DNA of 64,000 nucleotides from Candidatus Woesebacteria bacterium (GTDB lineage: Bacteria > Patescibacteriota > Microgenomatia > Woykebacterales > 2-01-FULL-43-14), in contig JAGVAV010000002.1 in the NCBI GenBank assembly GCA_020060105.1, forward strand, positions 6,186 to 70,185. The letters are read 5' to 3'. Numbering within the stretch: position 1 is the stretch's first letter; each line of letters starts with the position of its first letter. A model generated the notes under the pieces. It was not told the DNA's origin, searched no databases, and was given only the letters and a program-made list of their open reading frames with translations. The position numbers and the translations under genes are program-made. Shown here piece by piece: positions 1 to 63,096 of this stretch.

Positions 1-1652
1 AAGGCGTAAGCCTTTTGATTCCCTCTTCCAACTCTTCCTCTAAGTTGATGAAGATCCGCTAAGCCAAAATTCTGAGCGTTATTAACAATAATAGTATTAG
101 CGTTAACAATGTCTAGACCACTGCTAATAATATTTGTACAAATAAGTATATCAATCTGTTTACTAAGGAAATTATCTATAACTTTTTCTAACATCGTTTC
201 TTTCATTAGCCCGTGAGCAATTTCTACTCGTGCTGTGGGAAACAACTTTCGCACTAAGCTCAGCTCCTTTAAGATATCCTTAATGTAGTTACTGACATAA
301 AATACCTGCCCTCCCCGAGATAACTCTCTTAAAACAGCTTCTCTTAGAACATCTAAATCCTTTGGGCCAACACGCGTTTCAATCGGAAACCTTCCCAAGG
401 GAGAGGTATTTATTACTGAAACTTGGCGAATTTTAGTTAGAATCATTTGAAGTGTTCTGGGAATAGGAGTCGCGGATAAAGAAAGTACATCCACCTCCGG
501 GCGGATTTTCTTAAATCTTTCTTTTTGAACCACACCGAAGCGATGCTCCTCATCAATTATCAGTAAACCCAAATTTTTAAAACGAACACCGGAAGAAAGC
601 AAAGAATGAGTTCCAATCACGATATCTACCTGACCCTTAGCCAAACTTTCAACAACCGACCGTCTTTCATTAAGGTTTTGAAACCTAGATAAGACCGAAA
701 CCCGAACAGGAAAATCTCTTAACCTTTCTTTAAACACATGATATTCTTGTTTTGCCAAAAGAGTTGTTGGCGCCAGTACGGCCACCTGGTAATTATCTTG
801 AACTACCTTAAAGGCCGCCCGAACGGCTAATTCTGTTTTTCCAAAACCAACATCCCCAACTAAAATTCGATCCATCGGTACGATCCCATCCAAATCTTTT
901 TTTATCTCCACTAAAGACTTTTCTTGATCGAAGGTTAGTTGGAATGGAAAGCTATCTTCTAACTGCTTTTGCCATACGGTATCTGGAGAATAAGGCTTCC
1001 GCCTGGTATTTTCCCTAGTCGAGTAAATAAGTACCAAATCCCTAGCAATCTCATGCACAGAGTGCTTAACTCGGCTCTTTATTCTCTCCCATGATTCCGA
1101 ACCTAGATAACTCAACGAGGGAGGTTTATTTGAAATTCCCACATATCTGGTTACCCTATCTAACTGCGAAATCGGAACGTATAACTTATCTTCTTTTGCG
1201 TATTCAATTGCTAAATTACCTCCCCCTAAATCTTCTGAATCCACAACGCCCAAAAAACGACCCACCCCATAATCAACGTGGACAATAAAATCCCCAGGGT
1301 AAATATCAGATAAAATAACCCTATCATCCACGTTTCCTCTTTTCGTCCGATTTACCTTCTCGGATCTAATTGTTCTAAAGGGAATAACGTAAATCTCAGG
1401 GAGTTCCCGCGTCCCTTCAGGAGTATCCACCCCTAATAGCCATATTTTCTCTATCTTGTCCCCTAAAAAATCTAGTCGAGTTGGGCTGCGGTACCTCTCC
1501 AGCCACAAATCTATTACGCCACCTCTCACCGCAAAGTCACCCACCTCACAAACCTTTTCCTGGCGTTGGTAACCCAATCCCAAAAGCCGCTTTATAAGAG
1601 TGTTGTAATCAAAATTGTCCTCTTTCTTGATAATCAAACCATTATTTTCCAT
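1..1652 (-). CDS. mfd: Transcription-repair coupling factor Mfd. The N-terminus is in the window; the C-terminus runs off the window start. Short N-terminal region before helicase motif I.
   Basis: Minus-strand translation starts MENNGLIIKKED... at ATG 1652..1650. Helicase motif I (GDVGFGKTE) is only about 280 aa from the start. The gene lies directly downstream of pth, which is the conserved pth-mfd arrangement. Confidence 0.8.
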   Translation of the reverse strand, partial: MENNGLIIKKEDNFDYNTLIKRLLGLGYQRQEKVCEVGDFAVRGGVIDLWLERYRSPTRLDFLGDKIEKIWLLGVDTPEGTRELPEIYVIPFRTIRSEKVNRTKRGNVDDRVILSDIYPGDFIVHVDYGVGRFLGVVDSEDLGGGNLAIEYAKEDKLYVPISQLDRVTRYVGISNKPPSLSYLGSESWERIKSRVKHSVHEIARDLVLIYSTRENTRRKPYSPDTVWQKQLEDSFPFQLTFDQEKSLVEIKKDLDGIVPMDRILVGDVGFGKTELAVRAAFKVVQDNYQVAVLAPTTLLAKQEYHVFKERLRDFPVRVSVLSRFQNLNERRSVVESLAKGQVDIVIGTHSLLSSGVRFKNLGLLIIDEEHRFGVVQKERFKKIRPEVDVLSLSATPIPRTLQMILTKIRQVSVINTSPLGRFPIETRVGPKDLDVLREAVLRELSRGGQVFYVSNYIKDILKELSLVRKLFPTARVEIAHGLMKETMLEKVIDNFLSKQIDILICTNIISSGLDIVNANTIIVNNAQNFGLADLHQLRGRVGRGNQKAYA

Positions 1653-1717: not shown

Positions 1718-2191
1718 TTATTCATTTGCCCAAGTAACTGCTCTTTCAACTGCCTCTTTAATCGCTTTATCTAAAACTGGCCTTTCCTCATCGCTGAAAT
1801 TCTGTAAAACGTAGTTTTCGGCGGCCACGGACTTTTCTGGCCTACTAACACCAACCCTAAGTCGAAAAAAGGTTTTGTTATCAAGAGAATTAATGATAGA
1901 TTGCACTCCATTATGACCAGCGCTAGAACGGTTTTTTTGAAGTTTTACTTTTCCTAAAGGCAGATCCATATCGTCGTGAATCACCAACAAATCGTCTAGG
2001 GAAATTTTGTAAAAACTAACCGCTTTCAAAACATCCTTACCAGACTCATTCATAAAAGTTTCAGGTTTTAGTAACAAAGCATTAGACAAGAAAGAAACCT
2101 TTTTTAGCTCTTCCAGGACTAAATAACCGACATTATGTCTCGTTTTGGCGTATTGTGAACCAGGGTTACCTAGACCGACAATTATCTTCAT
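1718..2191 (-). CDS. pth: Peptidyl-tRNA hydrolase
   Basis: N-terminus MKIIVGLGNPG...TRHNVG is the Pth family signature. The gene sits upstream of mfd. Confidence 0.9.
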   Translation of the reverse strand: MKIIVGLGNPGSQYAKTRHNVGYLVLEELKKVSFLSNALLLKPETFMNESGKDVLKAVSFYKISLDDLLVIHDDMDLPLGKVKLQKNRSSAGHNGVQSIINSLDNKTFFRLRVGVSRPEKSVAAENYVLQNFSDEERPVLDKAIKEAVERAVTWANE

Positions 2192-5439: not shown

Positions 5440-6546
5440 TCACTTAAAAGGGATAAGTTGGGTAACTTTTTCGCCCAATGAGGTATTTAACCATAACCAA
5501 ATTATGTCTTGGTAGGTAATGAGAATAATTAAAAAGAGTAAAAACACCATACCAAAGGTGTGAACCCATTTTTCAAGCTTTAAGGGGACTTTCCTTCGGG
5601 TAATAAGCTCTGCGGTAATAAAAAGCAAACGACCGCCATCTAACGCAGGTAGCGGTAAGATATTAATAATTGCCAAATTTAGGCTTAGTAGGCCTAACAA
5701 CATTAACACGTTAACAAAACCCGATTTTGTCGCTAAGTGGGTAAAGTAAGCAATTCTCCCCAACCCCCCAACCTCTTCGGGAACTTCCTTTTCCACGAAC
5801 AGATCCCTCAACATCGTTCTTAAAGAGTCAACCATCAAACCAGTCGCTCTTAAAGCCTGATTAAAACCTACTACCGGAGCTTCCCAGATAGGAAACGACT
5901 TAGTAGCCACGTATGGATAAATCTCAATCCCCATCGATCCTTGACCCTGAGGTGGGTTTTCTCGGGGAGTAACTTTCAGGACTTCAAGCCTCCCCTCGCG
6001 TTCTACACTAACGGCAATCTCACTCCCAGCAAGTTTATCTGTTTTGTCACGTAAGTCCTCTGGGCCCCCTAACTCAACGCCGTTAATAGCCGTTATCACA
6101 TCCCCTTCCTTCAAACCAGAACTAAGCGCCGGGGAATCCTTAGCTACTTTCCCAATCAAAACTTTATCCGTCGGTAAGGGGCCGCCGATCACGTAAACAA
6201 CGGTTAAAACAGCTACCGCTAAGATAAAGTTCATTAGCACTCCCGCCGTAACCATGACGGCTCTTTTCCAAGGAGCTTGGGAAATAAAATTTCGAGGGTC
6301 CTTTGACGGTTCCTCTGAATCCTCTCCCGTTAATCGCACAAAGCCGCCTATCGGCAAGGCATTAACTGTGTACTCCGTCTCGCCTTTCTTTTTTCCCCAT
6401 ATCTTCGGCGGCAACCCGAATCCAAATTCTTCAACTTTGACCCCGAAAAACTTAGCCGATAGAAAATGGCCCAACTCGTGGATAAAAATTAACACTCCTA
6501 AAATTAAGACGAAGTTTAATCCGGTGTAAAGATACTCTGGGTTCAT
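5440..6546 (-). CDS. rseP: RseP-type site-2 protease (M50, with PDZ domain)
   Basis: HELGHF HExxH motif in the first TM, a PDZ segment, and LDGG motif. Conserved position next to proS. Confidence 0.88.
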   Translation of the reverse strand: MNPEYLYTGLNFVLILGVLIFIHELGHFLSAKFFGVKVEEFGFGLPPKIWGKKKGETEYTVNALPIGGFVRLTGEDSEEPSKDPRNFISQAPWKRAVMVTAGVLMNFILAVAVLTVVYVIGGPLPTDKVLIGKVAKDSPALSSGLKEGDVITAINGVELGGPEDLRDKTDKLAGSEIAVSVEREGRLEVLKVTPRENPPQGQGSMGIEIYPYVATKSFPIWEAPVVGFNQALRATGLMVDSLRTMLRDLFVEKEVPEEVGGLGRIAYFTHLATKSGFVNVLMLLGLLSLNLAIINILPLPALDGGRLLFITAELITRRKVPLKLEKWVHTFGMVFLLFLIILITYQDIIWLWLNTSLGEKVTQLIPFK

Positions 6547-8547: not shown

Positions 8548-9192
8548 TTACATACTTCTTAAATTCTTTTTCAACTGCTTATACTTCGGACTTTTTTTAA
8601 GAATATCAATTATTTCTTCTTTAACAATCTCTTTACTTCTCTCTCCGTCAACCACCTTAATTGACCTGGGATATTTATTTGCTAGAGCTTCGTAAACCTG
8701 CCAAACCTTCACTAACTTTTTCTCTTCTTCATATAACTCCACATCAAACCTATCTCGTTTTATCCGATTCATACAAACAGTGGGACTAACTCGGATAAAA
8801 AAAGAAATATCTGGGTAAATAAAGTACTTGTTTAACTCTAAAGCCCAGTTCGTATCAACATCCACAGAACCAAAAGCCACGGTTGACCAAGCAAAACGAT
8901 CTGTTATCACAACACTCCCACTTTTCAACATCGGAATAATTTCTCTAGATAAGTGGTGCCCCCGATCGGCCGCAAAGAGAAGTTGCAGCGATGTGGGAGG
9001 AAGACTTAAGGTGTTAGTTAACACCCCCCTTATCAAGCCACCTACCACATTATTGGTCGGCTCTTTAGTCGTGTATGTTCGGATTCCTTCTCTTTTCAAA
9101 AATTCCGCGATTAAAGAACATTGTGTTGAGGAACCACTCCCATCCAGCCCTTCAACATCAATAAATAAACCAGGAAATTCGTTTTTAACCAT
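8548..9192 (-). CDS. tmk: Thymidylate kinase
   Basis: EGLDGSGSST P-loop region, DRY/R lid, dTMP kinase family. Confidence 0.88.
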   Translation of the reverse strand: MVKNEFPGLFIDVEGLDGSGSSTQCSLIAEFLKREGIRTYTTKEPTNNVVGGLIRGVLTNTLSLPPTSLQLLFAADRGHHLSREIIPMLKSGSVVITDRFAWSTVAFGSVDVDTNWALELNKYFIYPDISFFIRVSPTVCMNRIKRDRFDVELYEEEKKLVKVWQVYEALANKYPRSIKVVDGERSKEIVKEEIIDILKKSPKYKQLKKNLRSM

Positions 9193-11203
9193 TATTTAAA
9201 CCCTCCTCCTCTGATTTTTCTTCACTATTTGATTTTGTTATTATCTCCGGCTTTTTCCAACTCATCCAGTTACAGCCTGGATAATTACTACAACCAAAAA
9301 AATTCCTCCCGCGTCTAGTCCTCTTTATCACCACATCACCCCCGCAATTAGGACACAAAGCGTCGGCTTTTTTTTCATAATTTTTGGTATTCTTGCAATC
9401 CGGGTAACCCGAACACGCCAAGAACTTCCCAAATCTTCCATATTTTATTACCATCGGTCTTTTACATATGTCACAAATCTCTTCGGTTTCTTCTACGGGA
9501 ATTTCCACTCGTTGAGAAGACTCATAAACTTTTTCCAATTGTTCGCTGAAGGGTTCATAAAATTCCTTGATCACCGGTACCCAAGGTTTCTCCCCATTAG
9601 CGATGGCGTCCAACTGGTCCTCCATGCGGGCTGTGAATTCGGCATTGACAATATTTGAAAAATTATTAACCAAAAAGTCGTTTACTCCAACTCCTAAAGA
9701 AGTTGGCTGAAACTTTCCATCCAATCTTTCGACATAGTTTCTCTCTACAATTGTGGATAAGATTGGGGCATAAGTAGAAGGACGACCAACGCCTCTTTCT
9801 TCCAATGCTTTGATCAAACCCGCTTCGGTAAAACGCGGAGGAGGCTCAGTAAAATGTTGTTCTGGAAGAAGATTAATTAAATCTAGTTGCTCTCCGACTT
9901 TTAACTCTGGCAACTTTTGCGGCTCCTTTTCCTTCGAACCTTCCTCCTTTCTCTCTAAGATCAAGGCCCAACCTGAAAACTTTAACACAGAACCGTTAGC
10001 GCGAAAGATATAATCTTTCGCTTTAATATCCACGCTTGTTTGATCGTAAATCGCGTCAGCCATCTGACAAGCTAACGCATTTTGCCATATTAAATGGTAC
10101 AACTTGACATGATCTTTGGACAACTCATTTTGAAGAGAACTAGGCTCACTATGAATATAAGTGGGTCGGATGGCTTCATGGGCTTCTTGGGCTACCTTAG
10201 ACTTAGTTTTATACCGCCTCGGACCAACCGGCAGAAATTCTTTTCCAAACTTCTCGGTAATATACTCTCTGATCTGCCCAATCGCCAACTCAGAAAGGTT
10301 GAGAGAGTCCGTGCGATGATAAGAAATAAGCCCACGCTCATATAAATCCTGAGCTACTTTCATTGTTTTTTTGGAAGTAAACTTTAGTTTATTCGCCGCC
10401 GCCTGCTGTAAAGTAGAAGTTGTGAACGGAGGGTAGGGGCTCTTCTTCACTTCTCTTTTACCCACACGACTAACTTCATACGAGGCGTTCTTTAGATCTC
10501 CAACTACTTTTAACGCTTTTTCTTGTCCGCTTAATTTGATATTTTCATTTTTGTACTTAACTAATTCCGCTTTAAAAATACCCTCCTCACCTTTAGGCTG
10601 TTTCCTTAACAACGCCTCAACACTCCAATATTCCTCCGGCTGAAAAGCGTCTCGCTCTCTTTCCCTATCCACAATCAAACGTAAAGCAACTGATTGAACC
10701 CTTCCAGCCGAAAGTCCTTTTCTAACCTTATTCCATAAAAGTGGAGAGAGCTTGTATCCTACTAAGCGATCTAAAGCCCTCCTTGCTTGCTGGGCATCAA
10801 CTAGTCTTAAATTTATCATCCCTGGATGATCTAAAGCGTCTTTAACTGCTTTTTCCGTTATCTCGTGAAAAGTCACCCTCTTAATGGGGACTTTACTCTT
10901 TTCCTCTACCAATTGCGCAATATGCCAAGAAATTGACTCACCCTCTCGGTCAGGGTCCGTCGCTAAAAATATTTCTTTCGCTTTTCCTGATGCATTTATT
11001 ATTTCTTTTGTATGCTCTCTTTTATCTTTTGGCACTAAGTATTGAAGTTTGAAATCGCTCTCTACGTCTATACCTAACTTTGATTTAGGCAAATCTCTAA
11101 CGTGTCCATAAGAGGCAATAACCTGATAAGAACCACCTAAAAACTTAGAAAGAGTGGTCGCTTTAGTGGGAGATTCGACCACAATCAAATTTTTCTTTTG
11201 CAT
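9185..11203 (-). CDS. topA: DNA topoisomerase I
   Basis: TOPRIM N-terminus (LIVVESPTKA), a catalytic Tyr region, and C-terminal C4 zinc ribbons. Confidence 0.92.
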   Translation of the reverse strand: MQKKNLIVVESPTKATTLSKFLGGSYQVIASYGHVRDLPKSKLGIDVESDFKLQYLVPKDKREHTKEIINASGKAKEIFLATDPDREGESISWHIAQLVEEKSKVPIKRVTFHEITEKAVKDALDHPGMINLRLVDAQQARRALDRLVGYKLSPLLWNKVRKGLSAGRVQSVALRLIVDRERERDAFQPEEYWSVEALLRKQPKGEEGIFKAELVKYKNENIKLSGQEKALKVVGDLKNASYEVSRVGKREVKKSPYPPFTTSTLQQAAANKLKFTSKKTMKVAQDLYERGLISYHRTDSLNLSELAIGQIREYITEKFGKEFLPVGPRRYKTKSKVAQEAHEAIRPTYIHSEPSSLQNELSKDHVKLYHLIWQNALACQMADAIYDQTSVDIKAKDYIFRANGSVLKFSGWALILERKEEGSKEKEPQKLPELKVGEQLDLINLLPEQHFTEPPPRFTEAGLIKALEERGVGRPSTYAPILSTIVERNYVERLDGKFQPTSLGVGVNDFLVNNFSNIVNAEFTARMEDQLDAIANGEKPWVPVIKEFYEPFSEQLEKVYESSQRVEIPVEETEEICDICKRPMVIKYGRFGKFLACSGYPDCKNTKNYEKKADALCPNCGGDVVIKRTRRGRNFFGCSNYPGCNWMSWKKPEIITKSNSEEKSEEEGLNNG

Positions 11204-11218
11204 AAAAACCTCACGAGA

Positions 11219-12304
11219 TTATCTATTAATCACAAACATCATGTTACCTAAGTTTTTCACCTTACCTTTTATTTCCATCAAAGTCAAGGTCGAATTCACA
11301 ACATCCGTAGGTAATTTTGTCTCTTTAATCACCTGGTCTATCGTCTTAGCCCCGGAGGAAAGAATCTTTAAAATCGAGTCTTCCTCTGCGTTTTCTGGAA
11401 GAATAGAATCAGATTTGGAGTCTTTTACCGTTATATTCATTTCATCTATTATATCTTCTACACTAGTAACCAACTTCGCTCCGGCTTTAATCAAATCCGC
11501 TGGTCCTTTGGAAAGTTTGCTAAAGATAGGGCCTGGAACAGCGAAAACTTCCCGATTTTGATCAAGAGCTAAATTGGCTGTAATCAAAGAGCCGCTATCT
11601 TCCCCAGCTTCTGTTACCACCACCCCTCTTGATAAACCCGAAATGATCCTATTTCTCGCTGGAAAATTGCCAGCTAGTGGTTCAAAATTCGGAGGGAACT
11701 CTGATAGCAACACGCCGCCTCTAGCTATCTCTTCCGCTAGGGAATGGTTTTCTGGGGGATATATCCTGTTTAAACCACTGCCAAGGACGGCCAAGGTTCT
11801 TCCTCCACATTCGAGAGCTGTCTGGTGGGCTAACGAATCTACACCTCTTGCCAAGCCAGAAACTATAGTAAATCCATATCCCACTAACTCTTTTACTAAA
11901 TATCTGGTTACCTCTTTCCCATACACCGTGGCTTTCCTTGTGCCAACAACGGCTATTGCCAGATCATCTTCCGGTTTAATCTCACCTTTCAAAAAAATTA
12001 CAGGTGGAGGATCATAGATTTCCAGTAGTAAGCGGGGATAATCTTTATCCACGACTGTTATCACTTTAATACCCTGACTGATAATGCCTTCCAAATATCT
12101 ATCTGGTTCAATACTATTTCTATAGCGATCAAAGACCCAAGAAGCTTTTTCCCCAATCACTTTTGCCACATCCTCAATTCTAGCTTTCCAAACTAACTCC
12201 GGCGACTTGAAATAATCAATCAGTTCCTTAAAGCGAACTGGCCCAATTTGAGGCGCCCCGCTGAGGGCCACCCAAAAAGCAAGACTGTTAAAATTATTTG
12301 ACAT
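11219..12304 (-). CDS. dprA: DNA-processing protein DprA (Smf)
   Basis: Rossmann-like DprA core: GTRKATVYG...GLARGVDSLAHQ... Confidence 0.88.
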   Translation of the reverse strand: MSNNFNSLAFWVALSGAPQIGPVRFKELIDYFKSPELVWKARIEDVAKVIGEKASWVFDRYRNSIEPDRYLEGIISQGIKVITVVDKDYPRLLLEIYDPPPVIFLKGEIKPEDDLAIAVVGTRKATVYGKEVTRYLVKELVGYGFTIVSGLARGVDSLAHQTALECGGRTLAVLGSGLNRIYPPENHSLAEEIARGGVLLSEFPPNFEPLAGNFPARNRIISGLSRGVVVTEAGEDSGSLITANLALDQNREVFAVPGPIFSKLSKGPADLIKAGAKLVTSVEDIIDEMNITVKDSKSDSILPENAEEDSILKILSSGAKTIDQVIKETKLPTDVVNSTLTLMEIKGKVKNLGNMMFVINR

Positions 12305-14228
12305 TGAAATAATACTCCAAGATTTTTCTCGCTACAGGCGCGGCTACGCTTGAGCCTTCCCCACCGTTCTCAATAAAAACTGTAACCACAATTTCAGGCT
12401 CTTCATAGGGAGCAAAAACCGTAAACCACGCGTGAGGATCACTGCTCTCTCCTGTTTCCGCCGTTCCCGTCTTTCCGGCCACAGGAACTTTAAAATCAAA
12501 AAAGGGCCAAGCTGTTCCTCCAGAGACAACCGCTTCCCTCAACCCTTCCTTTAGAGTAGTCAAAGAATTGACGCTAACAAAATTCTCTCTGATTACTTCT
12601 GACCTAATTTTTTTAATCAAAGTCGGCTTTATAAGCTTGCCGCCATTAGCAACCACGCCCATCATTGCATTAACCTGCAGTGGAGTCGCCGTTAGGTCAC
12701 CTTGTCCAATTGACATGTTAATAGTGTTTCCCGGATACCACGGCTCCTTCAGTGTTTTTAACTTCCACTCCTCGTTGGGCACTAACCCTGAAGATTCCCC
12801 CAGCAAATCAACCCCCAGCTTCTCACCAAAACCAAAGAGACGAGCGAAATTTTCCAATGCCTTCTCCCCTATCCTTTCTCCAAGATGATAAAAAAAAGTA
12901 TCGTTTGAACGAGCGAGAGCCCTTACCACATCAATAAAGCCCTCCTTTTTCCCGTATTGAGTGTAGTACCAGTTTGTAAACCGATACTCTCCTAAAAAGA
13001 ATTCGCCGGTATCTTCTATCTTTGTCTCTTTAGATATTTTACCATTTTCTAATCCAGCCGCCGCCGTAACAACCTTAAAAGTGGAGCCAGGAGGATACGC
13101 GGCAGATACGGCTCTGTTTAGCATCGGTTTGTTTTTGTCATTCATTAATAAGTCATAGTCATCCCAGGAAATACCTTTTGCGAAGAGGTTATTATCATAA
13201 CTAGGTAAACTTATCATGCCTAATATCTCGCCAGTTTTAGGATTCTGAGCTACAACCACTCCCGCGCTAGACTTTACCTCTAACAGCTTATCCCGAAGAG
13301 CTTTTTCCATTTCCTTCTGCAGATCCAAATCTAAACTAAGTATCAGGTCCTCACCCGGAATTGGAGACACACTGGCTAAGACACCCGTTTTTTTCCCGTT
13401 TGCATCCACTTTAATTATTTCCTGGCCAGAAACTCCTCTAAGTATTTGCTCAAATGTCTTTTCAATTCCACTTACCCCCACCTTATCACCCGGACGGTAA
13501 TTAAAATGTTTGCTATTTGATAATTCCTCCTTGGAAATTTCACCAGTAAAACCAATAACGTGGGAAAGCAAGCTACCAAAGTTGTATTGGCGAACAGGAT
13601 CCACTTCTAAAGATACTCCCTTTAGCTCTCCTTCCATAGCTTCTATCTTTAACGCCACATCCCTGTTCACGCCGTCTTTAATAGTAAAGACTTCGTTACC
13701 AACGCTTTCAACCTTTTCTTTGACTTCCTCCTCACTTAATTCGAGTAATAAAGAAAGTTTGTTTGACAACGAAATTTTTTCTTCCATTGTTAGTGCAGAG
13801 CCGTCTAGGACAACGCGAAAAGCAGGAATATTACTGGCAAGCACATTGCCGTTACGATCGTAAACAACACCCCGAGGGGCATGGATTACCCGTGTTAGGG
13901 AGCGATTACCTTCCGAGGCACTAAGAAAGTTATGACCTTCAATAACTTGAAGCTGAACTAACCTGCTTGTTAAGAAAAAAATCGCGGTGAAGGTAAACAG
14001 ATATAAAGGTAGAATTCGCCAAACAGAGACTTTAAATTCCGGTTTAGAACCCCTAAGGTTACCCACAATAAAAACTTCTTGCCAAGAAGTAGAAAACCGA
14101 TCTTTCTCAGAGAAAAAACGGCGTCTAGACCGGTCAAATCGAACAACCATGTCAAAAAAAGCCTTGCCTAAAAAGGCTGGTTTTCTTCTAGCGTCTTTTC
14201 TAAAAATCCCCAGGTTTTTTTTCTCCAT
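12294..14228 (-). CDS. mrdA: Penicillin-binding protein 2 (elongasome transpeptidase)
   Basis: N-terminal TM and PBP dimerisation domain, STFK active-site motif, and position immediately downstream of mreBCD. Confidence 0.9.
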   Translation of the reverse strand: MEKKNLGIFRKDARRKPAFLGKAFFDMVVRFDRSRRRFFSEKDRFSTSWQEVFIVGNLRGSKPEFKVSVWRILPLYLFTFTAIFFLTSRLVQLQVIEGHNFLSASEGNRSLTRVIHAPRGVVYDRNGNVLASNIPAFRVVLDGSALTMEEKISLSNKLSLLLELSEEEVKEKVESVGNEVFTIKDGVNRDVALKIEAMEGELKGVSLEVDPVRQYNFGSLLSHVIGFTGEISKEELSNSKHFNYRPGDKVGVSGIEKTFEQILRGVSGQEIIKVDANGKKTGVLASVSPIPGEDLILSLDLDLQKEMEKALRDKLLEVKSSAGVVVAQNPKTGEILGMISLPSYDNNLFAKGISWDDYDLLMNDKNKPMLNRAVSAAYPPGSTFKVVTAAAGLENGKISKETKIEDTGEFFLGEYRFTNWYYTQYGKKEGFIDVVRALARSNDTFFYHLGERIGEKALENFARLFGFGEKLGVDLLGESSGLVPNEEWKLKTLKEPWYPGNTINMSIGQGDLTATPLQVNAMMGVVANGGKLIKPTLIKKIRSEVIRENFVSVNSLTTLKEGLREAVVSGGTAWPFFDFKVPVAGKTGTAETGESSDPHAWFTVFAPYEEPEIVVTVFIENGGEGSSVAAPVARKILEYYFNVK

Positions 14229-16478: not shown

Positions 16479-18722
16479 ATGACAAGTTTAGTTTTTTTGT
16501 GTAACAAAATTATTGAATACAGTTTCTACGCCCTTTTCTTCCTCGTTCCTTTAATTTTTTCTCATCTAACCTATGAATTATTTGAATTCAATAAGATGCT
16601 TCTTGTCTACTTCATTTCTATCATCATAGCCGGCGCGTGGTTAATTAAGTCACTCGAAACGGAAACATTTTATTTAAAAAGAACTTTTCTAGATATTCCA
16701 ATTCTTTTGTTTCTAATAGCTAACATTCTTTCTACTATATTTTCGATTGACCCTTACACCAGCCTTTGGGGTTACTACACTCGGTTCAACGGAGGTCTAA
16801 TTTCAACAATTTTCTATATTTTCCTCTATTACGCCTTTGTAAGTAACATTAAACCTAGTAAAGTATTAAAGATGATCTATGTTTCCGTGATCTCAGCGGC
16901 TGTAGTGTCGTTTTGGGGAGCACTAGCCTTTTTTGGGCGCGACCCGTCTTGTCTGTTAATTAACGGCGATTTTGGAACAAGTTGCTGGAATAAGCTTTTC
17001 AATCCCACGGTAAGAGCCTTTTCAACTATTGGACAATTCAATTGGTTAGCCGCATTTATCGCAATGATTCTACCTATTAGCGTATCTTTGATGATAATTT
17101 CTCAACCATTTTACAAAAAGATCCGTTATCTATCAGTTAGTTCTCTTATGTACCTTACCTTCACCCTGGCATACTCGAGAGGAGCAACGATCGGCCTAGC
17201 GGCAGGATTGCTTGTCTTTTTCTTACTTGCCGGCCTAGATAAAGTAAGAAAATATTGGAAAGGATTAATTGCTTCAGGAACAGTTGGATCAGCAGCAAGT
17301 TATTTTATCTTTACCTCTGTTTTCCTTAAGAACTCTTTTGATTGGGTATGGTTATCTGCTTTACTGATTATTGGGGCAGTGGGTGGTTTGTTTATCTTTG
17401 TTTTCTTCAACGCTTTATCCGTCCTAAAAGGAAATCGAAAGTGGCTTATCGTTTTGGCAATCGCCTTCCTTATCATCAATGTCCTTGCCAGCAACGCCTT
17501 CTCTCATAGACCCGTAAAAGTCAGTAATGTGACAACCGAAAGTGTTGGAACTGGTGGGGAGACAGACTCTGGACAAAATAGATTGGTTGTTTGGAAAGGA
17601 GCCTTAGACATTGCTAAAAACTTCCCTATCCTGGGCTCAGGGGTAGAGACTTTCGCCTACTCTTATTACCAATTTAGACCAGAAGAACATAACTTAGCTG
17701 GATCAGAATGGGATGTTTTATTTAATAAAGCCCACAACGAATACTTGAACTACCTTTCCACAACGGGGATCGTTGGGGTAATTACGTATTTAGCCCTTAT
17801 AATAATGTTTTATATCGCCACAATAAAACTATTCCTTAAAGAAAGTTCTGGAAGTAACAAGTTGATAATCGCAGCTTTTTTATCGGGCTATACTAGCTAC
17901 TTAGTTCAGAACACATTTAGCTTCTCTGTTGTACCAATCGCTTTGTTGTTTTATCTTTTTCCTGCCTTAATCATTAACCTGAGTGGAAATAAAAAAGACC
18001 AGAATAACCCACAACTTCAAATAAACATTAAACTTTTACCGGGTTCAATCCGCGCTCTTTATAGAAGAAGGGTGTTTCAGGTTACTATAGCTGTTATTAT
18101 TGTGTACGCCCTCCTTAAGATTGTTAACATTTGGCAAGCAGACGTTTCTTATGCAAAAGGTGTTCGACAGGGAGATTACCTCTCATTAGAAAGAGCGGTA
18201 AATTTAAACCCAGCAGAGCCAACTTATCGAATCGGATTAAGTTATCTACTGGCAGTAATGGCCAACAAAGAAGAAGACCCCCAGAAAAAGAAAGAGTTAG
18301 TTTTACGGACTGTAAATGAGGGAGAAAACGCCGTAAAAGCCAGCCCTCATAACGTAAGTCTCTGGAGAAATTTGGTAAGAACTTATTACGAGCTCTCCCA
18401 AATCGACAGCAGCTTTCTAAATAACGCTCTTGAAGCAGCGCTAAAAGCCGTCTCCCTGGCCCCAACTGATGCCAGAACACACCTCACCTTAGGCTTAGCT
18501 TATAAAGAAGCGAATTTATTAAACGAAGCTGCCCAAACTTTTCAAAAGACTATTGAGCTTAAGGCCGATTTCGCGGAAGCTTATTACCATCTTGCCTTAA
18601 CCTATCAACAACAAGAAGAAAAAGAAAAGGCAGTTAAGGTTCTGGAAAAATTTCTTAATTTATTCCCAGGTCAAAAAGAAAGCGTAAACAAGTTAATAGA
18701 AGAAATAAAAGGATCTAAATAA
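16479..18722 (+). CDS. O-antigen ligase-like (Wzy_C) polytopic membrane protein with a C-terminal TPR repeat domain
   Basis: More than 10 TM helices with a periplasmic loop carrying the KAHNEYLNYL Wzy_C motif. The C-terminal roughly 200 aa are TPR-like (YYHLALTYQQQEE...). Confidence 0.75.
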   Translation: MTSLVFLCNKIIEYSFYALFFLVPLIFSHLTYELFEFNKMLLVYFISIIIAGAWLIKSLETETFYLKRTFLDIPILLFLIANILSTIFSIDPYTSLWGYYTRFNGGLISTIFYIFLYYAFVSNIKPSKVLKMIYVSVISAAVVSFWGALAFFGRDPSCLLINGDFGTSCWNKLFNPTVRAFSTIGQFNWLAAFIAMILPISVSLMIISQPFYKKIRYLSVSSLMYLTFTLAYSRGATIGLAAGLLVFFLLAGLDKVRKYWKGLIASGTVGSAASYFIFTSVFLKNSFDWVWLSALLIIGAVGGLFIFVFFNALSVLKGNRKWLIVLAIAFLIINVLASNAFSHRPVKVSNVTTESVGTGGETDSGQNRLVVWKGALDIAKNFPILGSGVETFAYSYYQFRPEEHNLAGSEWDVLFNKAHNEYLNYLSTTGIVGVITYLALIIMFYIATIKLFLKESSGSNKLIIAAFLSGYTSYLVQNTFSFSVVPIALLFYLFPALIINLSGNKKDQNNPQLQINIKLLPGSIRALYRRRVFQVTIAVIIVYALLKIVNIWQADVSYAKGVRQGDYLSLERAVNLNPAEPTYRIGLSYLLAVMANKEEDPQKKKELVLRTVNEGENAVKASPHNVSLWRNLVRTYYELSQIDSSFLNNALEAALKAVSLAPTDARTHLTLGLAYKEANLLNEAAQTFQKTIELKADFAEAYYHLALTYQQQEEKEKAVKVLEKFLNLFPGQKESVNKLIEEIKGSK

Positions 18723-18728
18723 TAAACT

Positions 18729-20354
18729 ATGTATGCGGACGTGGTGGTTGAAAACCAAGGCTCCTTAGATAAACCAACGTTTACTTATCGTGTCGCTAAA
18801 AGGCTTGAGAAAACCATTAAAGAAGGCTGCTGTGTAAAAGTTCCTTTTCGAAATAATGTTTTACTCGGTTATGTTACCGAATTATCGAAGATATCTAAAG
18901 ATCAGGAAATAGCAAAGATTAAGGAATTAATCGACCTGGTATATCCGTTTCCCCTTCTTTACCCATATCAACTAAACTTAGCCAAGTGGATATCCTGGTA
19001 TTATTTTGTTCCGTTATCCCGCTCGATAAAACTAATGACCCCACCAATGGTAAAAAAACAGTTAAACCTCGCGCCTAACCCAAATCCTCAGACGAAACAA
19101 ACACTCATCCTAAACCCTAATTTGCAAAAAGCAGAAAAAGTATTTTATCAGTTGCCGGAAAAAGAGACGATATTCCTCAAGAAAGAGACCCCAAAATCGG
19201 AACTTTTTAGAAATTGGCTAACGATCTATGATGGAAAAGCTCGTTACATCGTCGGAGTTAGGTCTGCTGTGTTTGCCCCATTAATAAATTGCCGTAAAAT
19301 TATCGTTCTTGATGAAGAAAGTTCAAGCTATAAAGATGAAAGAAAACCCAATTATCACTCAAAACTAATCGCTGCTAAAATTTCCGAGTTGACTGGGGCT
19401 TCTCTCGAACTAAGGAGTCAGGCTCCGGAAATAGAAACTTTCTATTTTTCTACAAATAAAATAAACTCCGCCAACCCTCTTTCGTATGTACCTTACAGCT
19501 TAAAAATGAAAAATAGCGACCCTCCCAAAACAATTAAAGTAGTGGATTTAAAGTTTACTCCACTCAAGAAAGGCCTTTCGGAAAGTCTAACCCAAGCCGT
19601 AAAGATTACCGTACAATCTAGCGGGAAAGTTTTGTTGTTTTTAAATAAAACCAATTCCGGCGGTAATCTGAACTGCGAAAATTGTGGTTACAAGGAATAT
19701 GTTCAAGCTAAACCAGCGGTTTGCCCTAGATGTACAAGCTTAAAGATTCAGTTTAGAAGTTTAAACGTAAAAACCCTACTAGCAGAAACCGAAAGATTGT
19801 TTCCTCAAGCGCAAGAATCAATTTTAGTCGCGTCTCAAGCCGTCCTACACTCTAATTTGCAAAATAGCTTTGATTTAGTTGGCGTTATTTCGGCAGATAC
19901 CCTTCTTAATCTACCAGGCTATAAATCGAGTGAAAGAACCTTTCAAATTCTTCGTCAAGTAGAAGCTTTGTGCAAACCTAACGGCACCATCTTAATTCAA
20001 ACCTACAACCCAAATAGCAACTCAATAAAAAGTTTTGTCAATAATAATTACGATCAGTTTTATAGAAAAGAGTTAGAAGAAAGAAAAATTCTAAATTATC
20101 CTCCCTTCACAGAATTATTGAAATTAAGCCCAGGAATAAACAACATAAAGAAGTTAGAAACAGACCTGAAAGAATTTGAAAAAATTGCCAATCTTAACCA
20201 AACACAACTATTAAAAATAAATCAGGAAAGCGTTGTTTCAACAAAACCCCAAGTTCTAAAGCCGCAGTTGATACTAAAGGGCCCGCACCTACATAATTTC
20301 TTTCAATCTCAAGTCAAAAACTGGCGTTTTGAGGTTGATCCAGACATCGTTTAG
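18729..20354 (+). CDS. priA: PriA-like primosomal protein lacking helicase ATPase motifs
   Basis: N-terminal 3' DNA-binding domain (VDKPFTYRV...VKVPF), the PriA motif IVGVRSAVFAPL...LDEE, and a CxxC...CxxC zinc region. There is no Walker A (GxxGxGKT), Walker B reads DEES, and the arginine finger is absent. Confidence 0.7.
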   Translation: MYADVVVENQGSLDKPTFTYRVAKRLEKTIKEGCCVKVPFRNNVLLGYVTELSKISKDQEIAKIKELIDLVYPFPLLYPYQLNLAKWISWYYFVPLSRSIKLMTPPMVKKQLNLAPNPNPQTKQTLILNPNLQKAEKVFYQLPEKETIFLKKETPKSELFRNWLTIYDGKARYIVGVRSAVFAPLINCRKIIVLDEESSSYKDERKPNYHSKLIAAKISELTGASLELRSQAPEIETFYFSTNKINSANPLSYVPYSLKMKNSDPPKTIKVVDLKFTPLKKGLSESLTQAVKITVQSSGKVLLFLNKTNSGGNLNCENCGYKEYVQAKPAVCPRCTSLKIQFRSLNVKTLLAETERLFPQAQESILVASQAVLHSNLQNSFDLVGVISADTLLNLPGYKSSERTFQILRQVEALCKPNGTILIQTYNPNSNSIKSFVNNNYDQFYRKELEERKILNYPPFTELLKLSPGINNIKKLETDLKEFEKIANLNQTQLLKINQESVVSTKPQVLKPQLILKGPHLHNFFQSQVKNWRFEVDPDIV

Positions 20355-20398: not shown

Positions 20399-20941
20399 AT
20401 GTGTTCCAATATGATTTTACCAATCATCACGTATCCAAAACCCGTGCTTAAACAAAAAGCGACACCTATAAGTAAGGTGGACAAAAACGTGAAAGAAACG
20501 GTCAAAAATATGATTGAGACTCTCAAAAGCCGCGAAACTCCTGAGGTTTCAGGAGCAGGATTGGCGGCCCCTCAAGTGGGAGTCTCTAAAAGAGTTTTCA
20601 TAGTTAAGATTAACAAAGATTTTATCCCATTTATAAACCCCGAAGTGAAAGCAATCGGAGGAGAAACCTCAGATTCCTTTGAGGGTTGTTTTTCTGTTCC
20701 CGGTTATTTTGGTACGGTAAAAAGGTTCTCTCAGGTAGAAGTCAAATCTTTAACCTTAGGGGGGAAGACGGCTTATAGAAGATACAGTAACTTTTACGCT
20801 CACGTGATTCAACATGAGATGGACCACATCAATGGCGTACTTTTTATTGACAGGCTCAAAGAACAAGGAGGAAAACTTTTTAAGTATCTTGGGAAAGATC
20901 CAGAGGGAAAAGACAAATTCTTGGAGACATTTTTAAAATGA
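20399..20941 (+). CDS. def: Peptide deformylase
   Basis: GLAAPQVG, EGCFSVPG and HEMDH motifs. The true start may be M5 (MILPI, position 20411). Confidence 0.92.
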   Translation: MCSNMILPIITYPKPVLKQKATPISKVDKNVKETVKNMIETLKSRETPEVSGAGLAAPQVGVSKRVFIVKINKDFIPFINPEVKAIGGETSDSFEGCFSVPGYFGTVKRFSQVEVKSLTLGGKTAYRRYSNFYAHVIQHEMDHINGVLFIDRLKEQGGKLFKYLGKDPEGKDKFLETFLK

Positions 20942-21756
20942 AGATCGCCTTTTTCGGAACGGGAAGCTTTGCTTTGCCAATATTAAAGTGCCTGATAAGT
21001 AATTTTGAAGTTGTTCAAGTTTTCACCGCTCCCGTTGAGACCGACCCAAAAAAAGATTCGTTGCCTGGGAAAGTTAAAGCAGTAGCCCTAGAACACGACA
21101 TCCCGTTAATGGAGTTAAAAACACCCCTAGGGACCGAAGTCGTTGCTCAATTAGTCAACCAAGAAGTGGAGCTGACTGTCTTGGCGTCTTTTGGTCTAAT
21201 CCTACCTAGCCTTATACTAAAAACTCCCGCTTATGGTTCTATTAATGTCCATCCTTCCTTACTCCCTAAATACCGAGGCCCTTCTCCTATTCAGTCTTCA
21301 ATAATGTCAGGAGACAAAGAAACAGGGGTAACCGTCATTCTTATGGAAGAAAAAGTTGATGCTGGTAAAATAATTGCTCAGATTAAAACCAAAATCTCAG
21401 AAAGTGATACTAGCGAATCACTGACTAATAAGTTATCCCAAAACATCTCCAAACACCTTCCAGAAGTCTTATCAGATTGGCTTATTGGTAAAGTTAAACC
21501 AAGAAAACAAGATAATCGAAAAGCAACTTACACAAAGAAACTTCTTAAGAAAAGTGGGTTTATCGATTGGCAAAAACCTCCTGACAATCTAAACCGAAGA
21601 ATTAGAGCTTACTACCCCTGGCCAACCGTCTGGACTCTATATCGAGGAAAGATCTTAAAAATTTTGCCAAATTCAACAGTGCAACTAGAGGGAAAGAGGC
21701 CAATTAGCTTAAAATCGTTTTATCAAGGGCACCCTGATTTTAAGCTATCTTGGTAA
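20938..21756 (+). CDS. fmt: Methionyl-tRNA formyltransferase
   Basis: Formyltransferase N-domain with the SLLPKYRG motif. ATGA overlap with def. Confidence 0.9.
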   Translation: MKIAFFGTGSFALPILKCLISNFEVVQVFTAPVETDPKKDSLPGKVKAVALEHDIPLMELKTPLGTEVVAQLVNQEVELTVLASFGLILPSLILKTPAYGSINVHPSLLPKYRGPSPIQSSIMSGDKETGVTVILMEEKVDAGKIIAQIKTKISESDTSESLTNKLSQNISKHLPEVLSDWLIGKVKPRKQDNRKATYTKKLLKKSGFIDWQKPPDNLNRRIRAYYPWPTVWTLYRGKILKILPNSTVQLEGKRPISLKSFYQGHPDFKLSW

Positions 21757-22023: not shown

Positions 22024-22680
22024 ATGTTAGTGGATTTCTTTTCTGGTGACATAAATATAATAACTTTGTTGTCTTGGTTCATCGCGTTAGCCATAGCGGT
22101 TACCGTTCATGAGTTCAGCCACGCCCTAACAGCAGATAAATTAGGTGACCCAACGGCGCGCTACCAAGGAAGAGTAACCTTAAACCCCCTTGCTCATCTG
22201 GACCCTCTTGGAACAGTTATGATCCTCCTTACCAGGTTTGGTTGGGGCAGACCCGTCCCGTTTAATCCGTGGAACCTTAAAAATCCAAAGCAAGATGCGT
22301 TGTTAATCTCGTTAGCAGGCCCCGCGGCAAACTTAATCACCGCCTTTATTCTTTCTTTTCTGCTTAAAATGATACTACTCACATCTTTACTTACATTACC
22401 GCTGGTAGTAAAAAGCATTTTAGTTAGTGTTGTTACCTTAAGCATCGTTTTAAACGTGTTCTTAGCGGTCTTTAACTTAATACCAGTGGCCCCACTAGAC
22501 GGATTCAAAGTTGTTGGGGGTCTTTTACCTAGGGAACTTGCTCAAAAATGGGAGGGTTTAGAAAGGTACGGTCTTGTTTTTCTTATTATCTTAATCATCC
22601 CTCTAGGAGGGACCTCTCTTGCGGGAACAATTATTTCTCCCGTCTTAAACAACATCCTCCAAATTTTAATTGGGGCTTGA
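22024..22680 (+). CDS. M50-family (site-2 protease / SpoIVFB-like) membrane metalloprotease
   Basis: HEFSHAL HExxH motif inside a TM helix, and a polytopic membrane profile. Confidence 0.8.
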   Translation: MLVDFFSGDINIITLLSWFIALAIAVTVHEFSHALTADKLGDPTARYQGRVTLNPLAHLDPLGTVMILLTRFGWGRPVPFNPWNLKNPKQDALLISLAGPAANLITAFILSFLLKMILLTSLLTLPLVVKSILVSVVTLSIVLNVFLAVFNLIPVAPLDGFKVVGGLLPRELAQKWEGLERYGLVFLIILIIPLGGTSLAGTIISPVLNNILQILIGA

Positions 22681-51173: not shown

Positions 51174-52745
51174 CTAAGGCAGAGGTGTGTTAGTTGGCCC
51201 GGGCACCGCTGTAGGCGGTGGTGGTGGCGGTACTCCAGGTGTAGGCGGAGGAACCGTCGGTTGGGCTGTTGCTACCTCTGTCGGCGACGGATTAGGAACC
51301 ACAGGCGTTTTCACCACCTTCGTCGGAGTGCGATTATCGCCTGGATTTCTCGGCGTTGGCGACGGTGGTGCAGTAGGGGTGTTTGTTGGCGCCGCCGGTA
51401 TTGGAGTGTGTGTTGGCGTCGGCACTCCCGGAGGCACCGGCGTCGGTGTAGCCGTTGGCCCCACTGGAGGCACCGGTGTCGGTGTTGGCCCCACTGGCGG
51501 CACCGGCGTGGAAGTTGGCGCGGCCGGAGGCGGCGGGGGCGGAGGTGGAGCAGTAGTTACATTGAAAAACTCCAACTGCTCGACCAATCCGGGTTTTAGG
51601 ACCGCCAGTTGGCGGGTTCCTTTAAGAACCGCCCGAAATCGCCCGGCGCCTAATTGGTTAACATCCTCGCTAACTTCGACCACAACCGAGGAACGGCCCT
51701 CGGCAAACCACTCCCGAGGAGCTTCAAAGATTACTTCCCCAGCGTCGCCCGTGACAACGAAGCGATCAAACCCAAGATCGGGGTCCACCGTCCTGATCCT
51801 AAATTGCCAACCGCTTCGTTGGACAAATTTTTGAACTCCATCCGGCGTTTCGTCAATGAACTTAGTCACTTTCAGAAACGCTTTCTCGACGGGGATGAGT
51901 AGGTTAACGCAATTCCCGTCCAGAAAAAACACTTGTCCGTTCTTGAGAGTCACCTTTACGCCGGACACCCCAATGAACGGTCTGCTTCCCGAAGCAACAC
52001 TTCCGTCACTTCGAACGAAGTTTGTCTGGAAGGAACCGCTAAGGGAAACGTCATCAACCTGAAGGATGTCCGTCGGGCTGACGAGGATCCCTTGACGACC
52101 TAAGCCACTCGCCACGGCCAAACTTCGATTGGCATAAGTCCGACTGTCGACCCCACCCTGGACGATGTCATCACCCCTCCTCTGAGGAGGCGGAGCCTCC
52201 AACGCCGCTAACTTTTGGTCAATGACGTAAGGTTCGCCTAAGACGAACCGGGTCCCCGGAGAATAGTCGGGATGGTAACCCTTGGCTGTAAACTCCACAA
52301 AACCCATCCCCGGGGGAACCTCAATCTCGTAGCGACCCCCAAGGATAGTTGTGGTGTACTGTTTCGGCGGTTGGACTGTCCCAACCGGGGCAATCCGGAC
52401 AGTTACTTCCCCATAAGGAATCCGGATTCCCTCCTCATCCACCACCTCCCCCCGAATCCTCACCTTGTCAGGGATTTTAGTTGGGGTCAGGGTCGGGGTC
52501 GGGGTAGTGGTACTCGTTGCGGTGAGGGTAGGAGTTGGAGGAACAACCGCTGTCGCGGTTGCCTCCGCCGGTCCCGTTCTCGTAAAGGGGTTGGCCCAAA
52601 ACCACCCCGCTAAAAAAAGGACGATCACTGCGACGGACAATAAGATGTTTCGACCACCTCGCCAGGTTCGCACGGCTCTCTCCTTTCTCTTTAAACTGTT
52701 AGGTACTTTCTCTCCCCTTTCCGAGGAAACCTTGTATCGGAACAA
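51174..52745 (-). CDS. Hypothetical membrane-anchored secreted protein with Pro/Thr-rich linkers and a carboxypeptidase-regulatory-like beta-sandwich. Markedly GC-rich.
   Basis: TTG start and an N-terminal TM. PTPTPVPPVG repeats. GC content is well above the roughly 40% background across the whole ORF. Confidence 0.6.
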   Translation of the reverse strand: MFRYKVSSERGEKVPNSLKRKERAVRTWRGGRNILLSVAVIVLFLAGWFWANPFTRTGPAEATATAVVPPTPTLTATSTTTPTPTLTPTKIPDKVRIRGEVVDEEGIRIPYGEVTVRIAPVGTVQPPKQYTTTILGGRYEIEVPPGMGFVEFTAKGYHPDYSPGTRFVLGEPYVIDQKLAALEAPPPQRRGDDIVQGGVDSRTYANRSLAVASGLGRQGILVSPTDILQVDDVSLSGSFQTNFVRSDGSVASGSRPFIGVSGVKVTLKNGQVFFLDGNCVNLLIPVEKAFLKVTKFIDETPDGVQKFVQRSGWQFRIRTVDPDLGFDRFVVTGDAGEVIFEAPREWFAEGRSSVVVEVSEDVNQLGAGRFRAVLKGTRQLAVLKPGLVEQLEFFNVTTAPPPPPPPPAAPTSTPVPPVGPTPTPVPPVGPTATPTPVPPGVPTPTHTPIPAAPTNTPTAPPSPTPRNPGDNRTPTKVVKTPVVPNPSPTEVATAQPTVPPPTPGVPPPPPPTAVPGPTNTPLP

Positions 52746-55689: not shown

Positions 55690-55695
55690 GCGCGT

Positions 55696-59464: not shown

Positions 59465-63010
<3,546 letters not shown>

Positions 63011-63096
63011 GCTATATTTGGCCTTCACCTTCTATTCAGTTTCTAGAGTGTTAATGAAACTAAATAAGATATTAAATTTTCAAAGAGCGAAAACTT

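Follow-up and report, generated by a model that had tools for sequence, protein, structure and literature searches.

The question raised by this locus is what is left of PriA, the central bacterial replication-restart factor, once its helicase motor is gone. The stretch of DNA that we analysed (the window, 64,000 nucleotides, positions 6,186 to 70,185 of contig JAGVAV010000002.1 from a Candidatus Woesebacteria bacterium) carries on its plus strand, at positions 18729-20354, a single continuous open reading frame (ORF) for a reduced PriA of 541 aa plus stop. We found that the catalytic elements of this protein are lost, that the fold of PriA is retained in the predicted structure, and that orthologues of the same reduced form are distributed lineage-wide.

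The initial annotation of the gene, made from the letters alone, had noted a PriA 3' DNA-binding domain (3'BD), a pair of CxxC motifs and a remnant of helicase lobe 2, with no Walker A, DEES at Walker B and QVEALCKP at motif VI, and had called the protein ATPase-dead. A motif scan and an alignment to the E. coli PriA reference sequence (from NC_000913) bear out all of these observations. In regular expression searches G..G.GK[TS], [AG]....GK[TS] and GK[ST] occur nowhere in the window protein, and no Walker A is encoded in any other reading frame of the region from 16 to 21 kb. E. coli K230 and T231 fall in an alignment gap, leaving no motif I (Walker A, GxxGSGKT) of helicase superfamily 2 (SF2). 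No divergent P-loop was found by profile, pairwise or multiple alignment, and the profile and structure alignments show absence of the motifs rather than divergence. Motif II, which is DEEH in E. coli (residues 320-323, in DEEHDSSYK), reads (L)DEES, one residue shorter and with the His lost; the scan places this Walker B remnant at residues 195-198 (19311-19322). When the alignment is made without gaps, E. coli D320, which is D in 100% of the intact PriAs, corresponds to Y in 62% of the reduced family and to L194 in the window protein. Motif III reads RSQAPE in place of GSATPS and motif V ASQAVLHS in place of GTQMxAKG. At motif VI (nucleotides 19956-19979) QVEALC--KP stands against QVAGRAGRAGK, with both arginines replaced, and G[RK].GR is absent from the window protein by regular expression. 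None of motifs II, III, V and VI has its PriA form. With the P-loop segment physically absent and the His of motif II, motifs III and V and both arginines of motif VI replaced, the call of an ATPase-dead protein stands. The protein can be classed as a PriA pseudohelicase, since it descends from the PriA helicase and its motifs I and II are incompatible with ATP hydrolysis. ATP binding, ATP hydrolysis, translocation and unwinding are almost certainly all beyond it. The motor loss is specific to PriA, because Mfd, RadA and ClpC of the same window keep canonical P-loops (Mfd has GFGKT, together with DEEH and QLRGRVGRG).

At 541 aa against 732 in E. coli the protein is missing about 190 aa, close to the shortfall of about 200 aa given by the initial annotation. 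The shortfall was there equated with the loss of helicase lobe 1, and this does not hold, since residues 122-262 still make up roughly three quarters of that lobe. What is missing instead is the winged-helix (WH) domain, a segment of ~45 aa at the start of lobe 1, the inner finger of the zinc region and a stretch of ~27 aa in lobe 2. Similarly, the 'PriA-specific IVGVRSAVFAPL...LDEE segment' is present as described, but it belongs to lobe 1 itself. Reading from the N-terminus, the 3'BD (aa 1-108, 18729-19052, PF17764; this and all following domains on the plus strand) keeps Y20, W87 and Y92, the counterparts of E. coli Y18, W83 and Y88, which are 100% conserved in reduced and intact PriAs. A 13-aa linker (aa 109-121, 19053-19091), predicted by AlphaFold2 to be coil, replaces E. 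coli residues ~104-245. By the alignments this missing segment holds the WH domain (residues 109-181 of E. coli PriA, PMC5778457) together with the first strand of lobe 1, the P-loop (Walker A) and the subsequent helix. The remnant of lobe 1 (aa 122-262, 19092-19514, from alignment and AlphaFold2) has a degenerate motif Ia (LILNPNLQKA vs VPEIxLTPQ), an intact GVRSAVFAP and a well kept aromatic-rich loop, YKDERKPNYH. G176, R178, F182, P184, E196, Y201, K202 and P207 are conserved here in both the reduced and the intact group, and residues 245-262 form a loop with a predicted local distance difference test score (pLDDT) below 50.

Lobe 2 begins at aa 263-313 (19515-19667), where motif IV is LFLNKT against the canonical LFLNRRG; its L, F, L and N are 100% conserved, and the position of R427 is K in 96% of the reduced family. 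This part is followed by a single zinc-ribbon remnant (aa 314-340, 19668-19748), with CxxC found by the scan only at 316 and 332. The four Cys (C316, C319, C332 and C335) correspond to E. coli C436, C439, C476 and C479 and are 100% conserved in both groups, and the alignment shows E. coli C445, C448, C463 and C466 and the segment between them to be deleted. The Cys-rich region (CRR) with four CxxC that binds two Zn (PF18319) is not found as such: there is no PF18319 match, only the first and fourth CxxC are left, and weak HypA and rubredoxin-like Pfam matches cover residues 266-343. The beta-hairpin that has been described as a strand-separation wedge in PriA (PMC10175261) should, judging by position, lie within the inner CRR segment that was deleted. 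The second part of lobe 2 (aa 341-430, 19749-20018) is without ~27 aa (E. coli ~506-532), and the C-terminal domain occupies aa 431-541 (20019-20351).

The protein is still readily recognised as a PriA. Pfam PriA_3primeBD (PF17764) covers residues 5-105 with an E-value of 5.8e-18 and 65 bits against a cut-off of 22.7. A phmmer search of the PDB sequences returns K. pneumoniae and E. coli PriA with E-values of 2e-28 to 3e-26, and the K. pneumoniae match comes in three pieces (query 17-109 on 31-120, 120-338 on 258-466 and 326-467 on 511-655), the gaps between which mark two internal losses. The scores stay below those of the curated families, with 187.8 bits against a cut-off of 230.35 for the TIGR00595 priA profile, in a match that begins only at profile position 24, and 251.8 against 813 for the PRK05580 equivalog. 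The AlphaFold2 model has a mean pLDDT of 85.5 and a predicted template modelling score of 0.85, with low confidence only at residues 245-262 and 500-508. Given that the model was run with a 46-sequence alignment in which most rows were intact PriAs, the packing near the missing P-loop strand should not be over-read. In a Foldseek search of the PDB with this model the top match is 8fak_H (E-value 1.2e-34, TM score 0.81), followed by 4nl4 and by the WH-deletion structure 6dcr (E-value 5.7e-31), and Mfd comes far below the PriA entries (E-value ~1e-6). The predicted structure has the overall PriA fold including the C-terminal domain.

The genomic position argues in the same direction. Downstream of the gene lie def (20399-20941) and fmt (20938-21756), both on the plus strand and identified by Pfam, and the order priA-def-fmt is common to the intact PriA of Halothermothrix orenii, to an ATPase-dead PriA of Parcubacteria type and to all the reduced orthologues. 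Placed as a PriA gene should be, in a position shared by intact, dead and reduced loci, the window gene is, as had been proposed, no stray fragment: it is the chromosomal priA, orthologous to those genes, of a Microgenomates-like member of the Patescibacteria. Its nearest relative is P0001, a protein of 537 aa with 43-44% identity that has identical deletions in two independent assemblies (Logan and NCBI). The synteny around P0001 equals that of the window (mreC, mreB, Wzy/TPR, priA', def, fmt, M50). This closest orthologue was deposited as 'hypothetical protein [Patescibacteria group bacterium]', and the reduced PriAs fall under every NCBIfam priA cut-off.

The motif loss is lineage-wide. Our scan of GTDB species genomes, with patterns that are specific to the reduced family and thus uninformative on intact paralogues in the same genomes, returned 23 loci, mostly Ca. 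Curtissbacteria. Full-length ORFs are present in 19 of the 23; these encode 526-662 aa, have exactly 2 CxxC and lack both Walker A and the motif VI Arg. All of the reduced priA loci are upstream of def-fmt(-M50). When the Walker A region of an intact PriA from the Candidate Phyla Radiation (CPR) was compared with all loci by tblastn, the matches started only after the P-loop. The reduced gene is under purifying selection across the lineage: the ratio of nonsynonymous to synonymous substitution (dN/dS) is 0.09-0.19 for the closest Curtissbacteria pairs and at most 0.24 for the window gene against L001, values that are to be read with dS saturated. We also compared the columns of 26 reduced and 50 intact PriAs, in E. 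coli numbering. E254, T258, D320, G355-T358, G538, Q540, K544, G545, Q580, G583 and R584 are ~100% conserved in the intact proteins and variable or replaced in the reduced ones. GxRSAxFxP, E322, Y327-K328 and the rest of the aromatic-rich loop (YKxERxPY), LFLN(K), the four remaining Cys, D560, Q597, R625 and PP631-632 are ~100% conserved in the reduced family. Positions of the ATP site are thus relaxed and the DNA-contact and structural elements are conserved.

Some copies among the related loci depart from this pattern. In the metagenome-assembled genomes (MAGs) L023 (6052-7727) and L016 (3298-4986) the reduced priA is split over two frames, and L024 (6001-7398, labelled Saccharibacteria) has a still shorter reduced priA of 465 aa with 27% identity. 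These copies could be assembly errors, real pseudogenes or further reduction.

To place the reduced form among other PriAs, we searched 1.84 billion cluster representatives with a profile and classified the best 150 clusters (at 50% identity). Among these best 150, 25 clusters are reduced, without Walker A, DExH or motif VI, with 2 CxxC and with full-length members of 489-608 aa. Another 40 are dead with the fold kept, having the three motifs degenerate, four CxxC and mostly 610-720 aa, while about 18 have lost some of the motifs and 65 are intact with all motifs present. In the PriAs that are dead with the fold kept, the P-loop strand and helix persist as a non-consensus segment (e.g. LLHYDNETEKLVF). 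Their named members come from 'Parcubacteria group', 'Candidatus Parcubacteria' or 'Patescibacteria group' bacteria, and one of them (L028, 5001-6989) is also upstream of def-fmt. Examples such as P0163, P0175, P0283, P0291 and P0295 are annotated as primosomal protein N'. Intact short PriAs persist in some CPR lineages, for example in Doudnabacteria (P0297, P0068). In a neighbour-joining tree, which is rough and only indicative given its BLOSUM distances and long branches, the reduced forms make up one clade, with the window protein and P0001 sister to the Curtissbacteria-like members and the dead-but-complete forms adjoining. This hints at a single origin of the reduced form. P0230 (582 aa), a dead PriA with two CxxC only, nests in the same tree among the dead PriAs with four CxxC, and its inner zinc finger may have been lost independently.

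We lean, by a small degree, toward seeing in these classes the steps by which PriA, over much of the Patescibacteria, became an adaptor that recognises forks independently of ATP. The series suggests that the motifs decayed first with the fold kept (the Parcubacteria type), and that excision of the P-loop module, the WH domain and the inner zinc finger followed (the Microgenomates/Curtissbacteria type, which includes the window protein), an order for which the tree is only indicative.

The best explanation of the window protein is probably that it is an ATP-independent, structure-specific binder of forks or D-loops that recruits the replicative helicase, a reading drawn from its residues and from analogy with studied PriAs. 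The retained DNA-binding surfaces would recognise abandoned forks or D-loops by engaging the nascent leading-strand 3' end, the fork junction and the single-stranded DNA (ssDNA) of the lagging-strand template. The reduced PriA would then have a passive part, as a platform to which the replicative helicase DnaB is brought either directly or via another partner. Forks with a duplex lagging arm would need a different helicase. Such a role matches what is seen with the ATPase-dead K230R protein of E. coli in the PriA-PriB pathway and what has been proposed for D. radiodurans PriA. The K230R protein (priA300) has no ATPase, helicase or translocase activity, yet the mutant is near wild type and supports PriA-PriB restart; only the PriA-PriC route and certain special reactions depend on PriA helicase activity (PMC5778457, PMC13594977). 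D. radiodurans PriA is a natural pseudohelicase without ATPase or helicase activity that binds forks and DnaB (PMC4504706).

The pattern of what was kept can be compared with the contacts known from fork-bound E. coli PriA. There the 3'BD grips the nascent leading-strand end, and a lobe-1 loop is inserted into the junction as a wedge. The lagging-strand ssDNA runs along both lobes, the CRR and the C-terminal domain, and the WH domain only touches the parental duplex 10-20 bp away (PMC10175261). Additionally, R427 and R428 of motif IV contact the lagging-strand ssDNA (PMC13594977). What the reduced family keeps are these DNA-contacting elements; what it has lost are the parts involved in ATP hydrolysis and, judging from where they lie, in unwinding. 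On this basis we infer DNA binding, partner recruitment and a role in restart. The fork and SSB recognition and primosome loading that the initial annotation expected to be retained are likewise putative, as read from conserved residues.

Several observations weigh against a restart platform. Half of the CRR is missing in the window protein, though the E. coli CRR is required for the PriA-PriB pathway (PMC5778457), and no partner (PriB, DnaT, DnaD or DciA) was identified within the part of the genome covered. The pocket of the 3'BD is altered, with D17 replaced by T19 and G37 by R41 in the window protein; T at the D17 position is also common among intact PriAs. The C-terminal domain aligns unreliably to E. 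coli PriA and the SSB-binding pocket cannot be mapped there, so what we say of this pocket is limited to the conservation of W87 and Y91/Y92. Deletion of a core strand and helix of lobe 1 may disturb folding beyond what the AlphaFold2 picture suggests. Finally, a second intact priA may exist in the rest of the genome: our search found none, and it covered the 64-kb window (by tblastn with intact PriAs) and the flanks of 25 related loci.

There are other ways in which the gene could be explained. The protein could be a PriA that has taken on a new function, either as a structure-specific DNA binder with another role, such as on D-loops or recombination intermediates, or as the DNA-targeting subunit of an ATPase supplied in trans. 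Having lost the WH domain, the inner finger of the CRR and every catalytic motif, the protein has been reduced more radically than D. radiodurans PriA, and the reduced consensus departs from the intact one at many conserved columns, each newly fixed (e.g. K544 to Y and G490 to N), both of which would suit a change of role. However, the priA-def-fmt position is strictly conserved with no new partner gene adjoining, the kept elements correspond to the fork-DNA contacts of E. coli PriA, and none of the loci examined has a paralogous intact priA, and we therefore think a new function rather unlikely. Patescibacteria genomes are reduced, and one could also expect priA to be in the process of being lost from such a genome with no remaining function. 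The gene does diverge more quickly than the genes around it, with an identity to the orthologue of 43-44%, while def, fmt, M50, mreC and mreB reach 53-83%, and some MAG copies are split across frames. Such decay is hard to reconcile with intact ORFs of similar length in at least 25 clusters at no more than 50% identity, with dN/dS of 0.09-0.24 and dozens of positions 100% conserved, including the four putative Zn-ligand Cys, or with the confident predicted fold. The conservation data largely refute a decaying relic, which we regard as very improbable.

Still less probable is that the protein binds nucleotide at a non-canonical site and goes on translocating. E. coli PriA has been suggested to have a further, weaker nucleotide site, which was never located (PMC5778457), and E196 (E. 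coli E322) is invariant. Against this, the P-loop strand and helix are deleted and not diverged, and the motif VI arginines, motifs III and V and the inner CRR finger (the wedge by position) are gone as well. The least credible explanation is that an intact priA has been broken by a deletion, a frameshift or a chimeric contig. The source is an uncultured-type genome, and metagenome assemblies do contain errors, as is the case for L016 and L023. An upstream frameshift or assembly error was what the initial annotation held could overturn its reading. The frame though is continuous and leaves no room upstream, no frame from 16 to 21 kb encodes a Walker A, and the same deletion boundaries recur in independent assemblies and in about 20 species, so that an artefact hardly needs to be considered.

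Returning to the reduced PriA as a probable ATP-independent helicase recruiter, it is useful to compare it with the PriA forms already described. Relative to canonical PriA (E. coli and K. pneumoniae; PDB 4NL4, 6DGD and 8FAK), the window protein is without the WH domain, the P-loop strand and helix and motifs III, V and VI, has DEES and not DEEH, one putative zinc site and not two, and lacks ~27 aa of lobe 2. Deinococcus is already known to have an ATPase-dead PriA, and what is new here is a more extreme and lineage-wide form in which the catalytic module is excised and not mutated. Like the window protein, the PriA of D. radiodurans and other Deinococcus-Thermus (Lopper 2015, PMC4504706) is a natural PriA without the Walker A and B consensus. 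However, in Deinococcus-Thermus the motifs are substituted (e.g. GKT to GRT) and Walker A and B can still be aligned (PMC4504706), whereas the window protein physically lacks the P-loop segment and the WH domain as well as half of the CRR, and nothing is left of its motif VI. The motor loss is independent of that in Deinococcus because the lineages are unrelated. E. coli priA300 (K230R), an engineered mutant, shows that PriA-PriB restart can proceed without ATPase and helicase activity, and 6DCR is a solved PriA without the WH domain. Each of these, though, alters one feature of a protein that is complete in all other respects and has PriB and DnaT to work with, and the window protein combines all the losses. 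Similar too are the dead PriAs of Parcubacteria type (such as P0163, P0175 and P0291; 610-720 aa), which have no WH domain, degenerate Walker A, DExH and motif VI, and the same priA-def-fmt position. Those proteins keep the degenerate P-loop strand and helix and four CxxC, and the window protein is trimmed further. We found no published account of PriA motif loss in Patescibacteria or CPR, in a literature search that was incomplete and should not be taken as proof of novelty.

Outside PriA the nearest SF2 relatives are Mfd and RecG, and the Mfd of the window is without the 3'BD, the Zn ribbon and the PriA C-terminal domain. The partial Mfd/TRCF gene (1-~1700, minus strand) runs off the start of the window, downstream of pth (1718-2191, minus strand). 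The only other tblastn match to intact PriAs, at 519-959 (minus strand), which we considered as a second priA fragment or as a Walker A acting in trans, belongs to this Mfd/TRCF gene and has intact SF2 motifs.

If the reduced PriA does reload the replisome, a natural 'minimal PriA' would define the parts that are required for this. The 3'BD, the aromatic-rich loop, motif IV, the outer zinc ribbon and the C-terminal domain would make up the proposed minimal core for fork recognition and helicase recruitment, and a conserved PriA of 540 aa under selection amounts to a natural deletion series. It would also mean that the scaffold function, and not helicase activity, is the essential role of PriA in bacteria without PriB, PriC or DnaT. 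Whether PriA acts alone where these are missing was asked in a 2017 review (PMC5778457). Together with the Deinococcus-Thermus case, PriA motor loss would have happened in at least two unrelated lineages; it is widespread in Patescibacteria. There is a practical consequence too, in that comparative surveys would miscount the presence of PriA when reduced forms score under the cut-offs and the closest orthologue is labelled hypothetical. Verdicts that such lineages lack PriA may be wrong for this reason.

Immediately upstream of priA is a gene for a Wzy_C/TPR membrane protein (16479-18722, plus strand, from Pfam), noted here as context only. The priA ATG is 6 nt past its double stop, and the two genes are probably co-transcribed. 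The same neighbour is found upstream of priA in L001, L002 and many Curtissbacteria loci. Two genes for M50-family metalloproteases are present in the window (5440-6546, minus strand, and 22024-22680, plus strand). One of them is RseP-like with PDZ domains; the other is small and is kept downstream of priA-def-fmt in all related loci. DNA-metabolism and housekeeping genes lie at 9185-14228 and 54346-58113 (both minus strand). They comprise ORFs of 672, 361 and 644 aa, which occupy the positions of TopA, DprA and PBP2 in the syntenic locus L001, an assignment made by position only, and the genes for RadA (Sms) and ClpC. Between 50001 and 52000 the G+C content is locally raised, to 0.486 against ~0.40, and this region overlaps a 523-aa ORF (51174-52745, minus strand) whose sole match is a CarboxypepD_reg domain. 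The rRNA operon lies on the minus strand in the order 16S (cut at the window end), tRNA-Ile, tRNA-Ala, 23S and 5S. Its 23S rRNA gene (59468-63011) is ~620 nt longer than the Rfam model of the bacterial large subunit rRNA, and a group I intron match of 58 bits lies inside it at 60498-60735.

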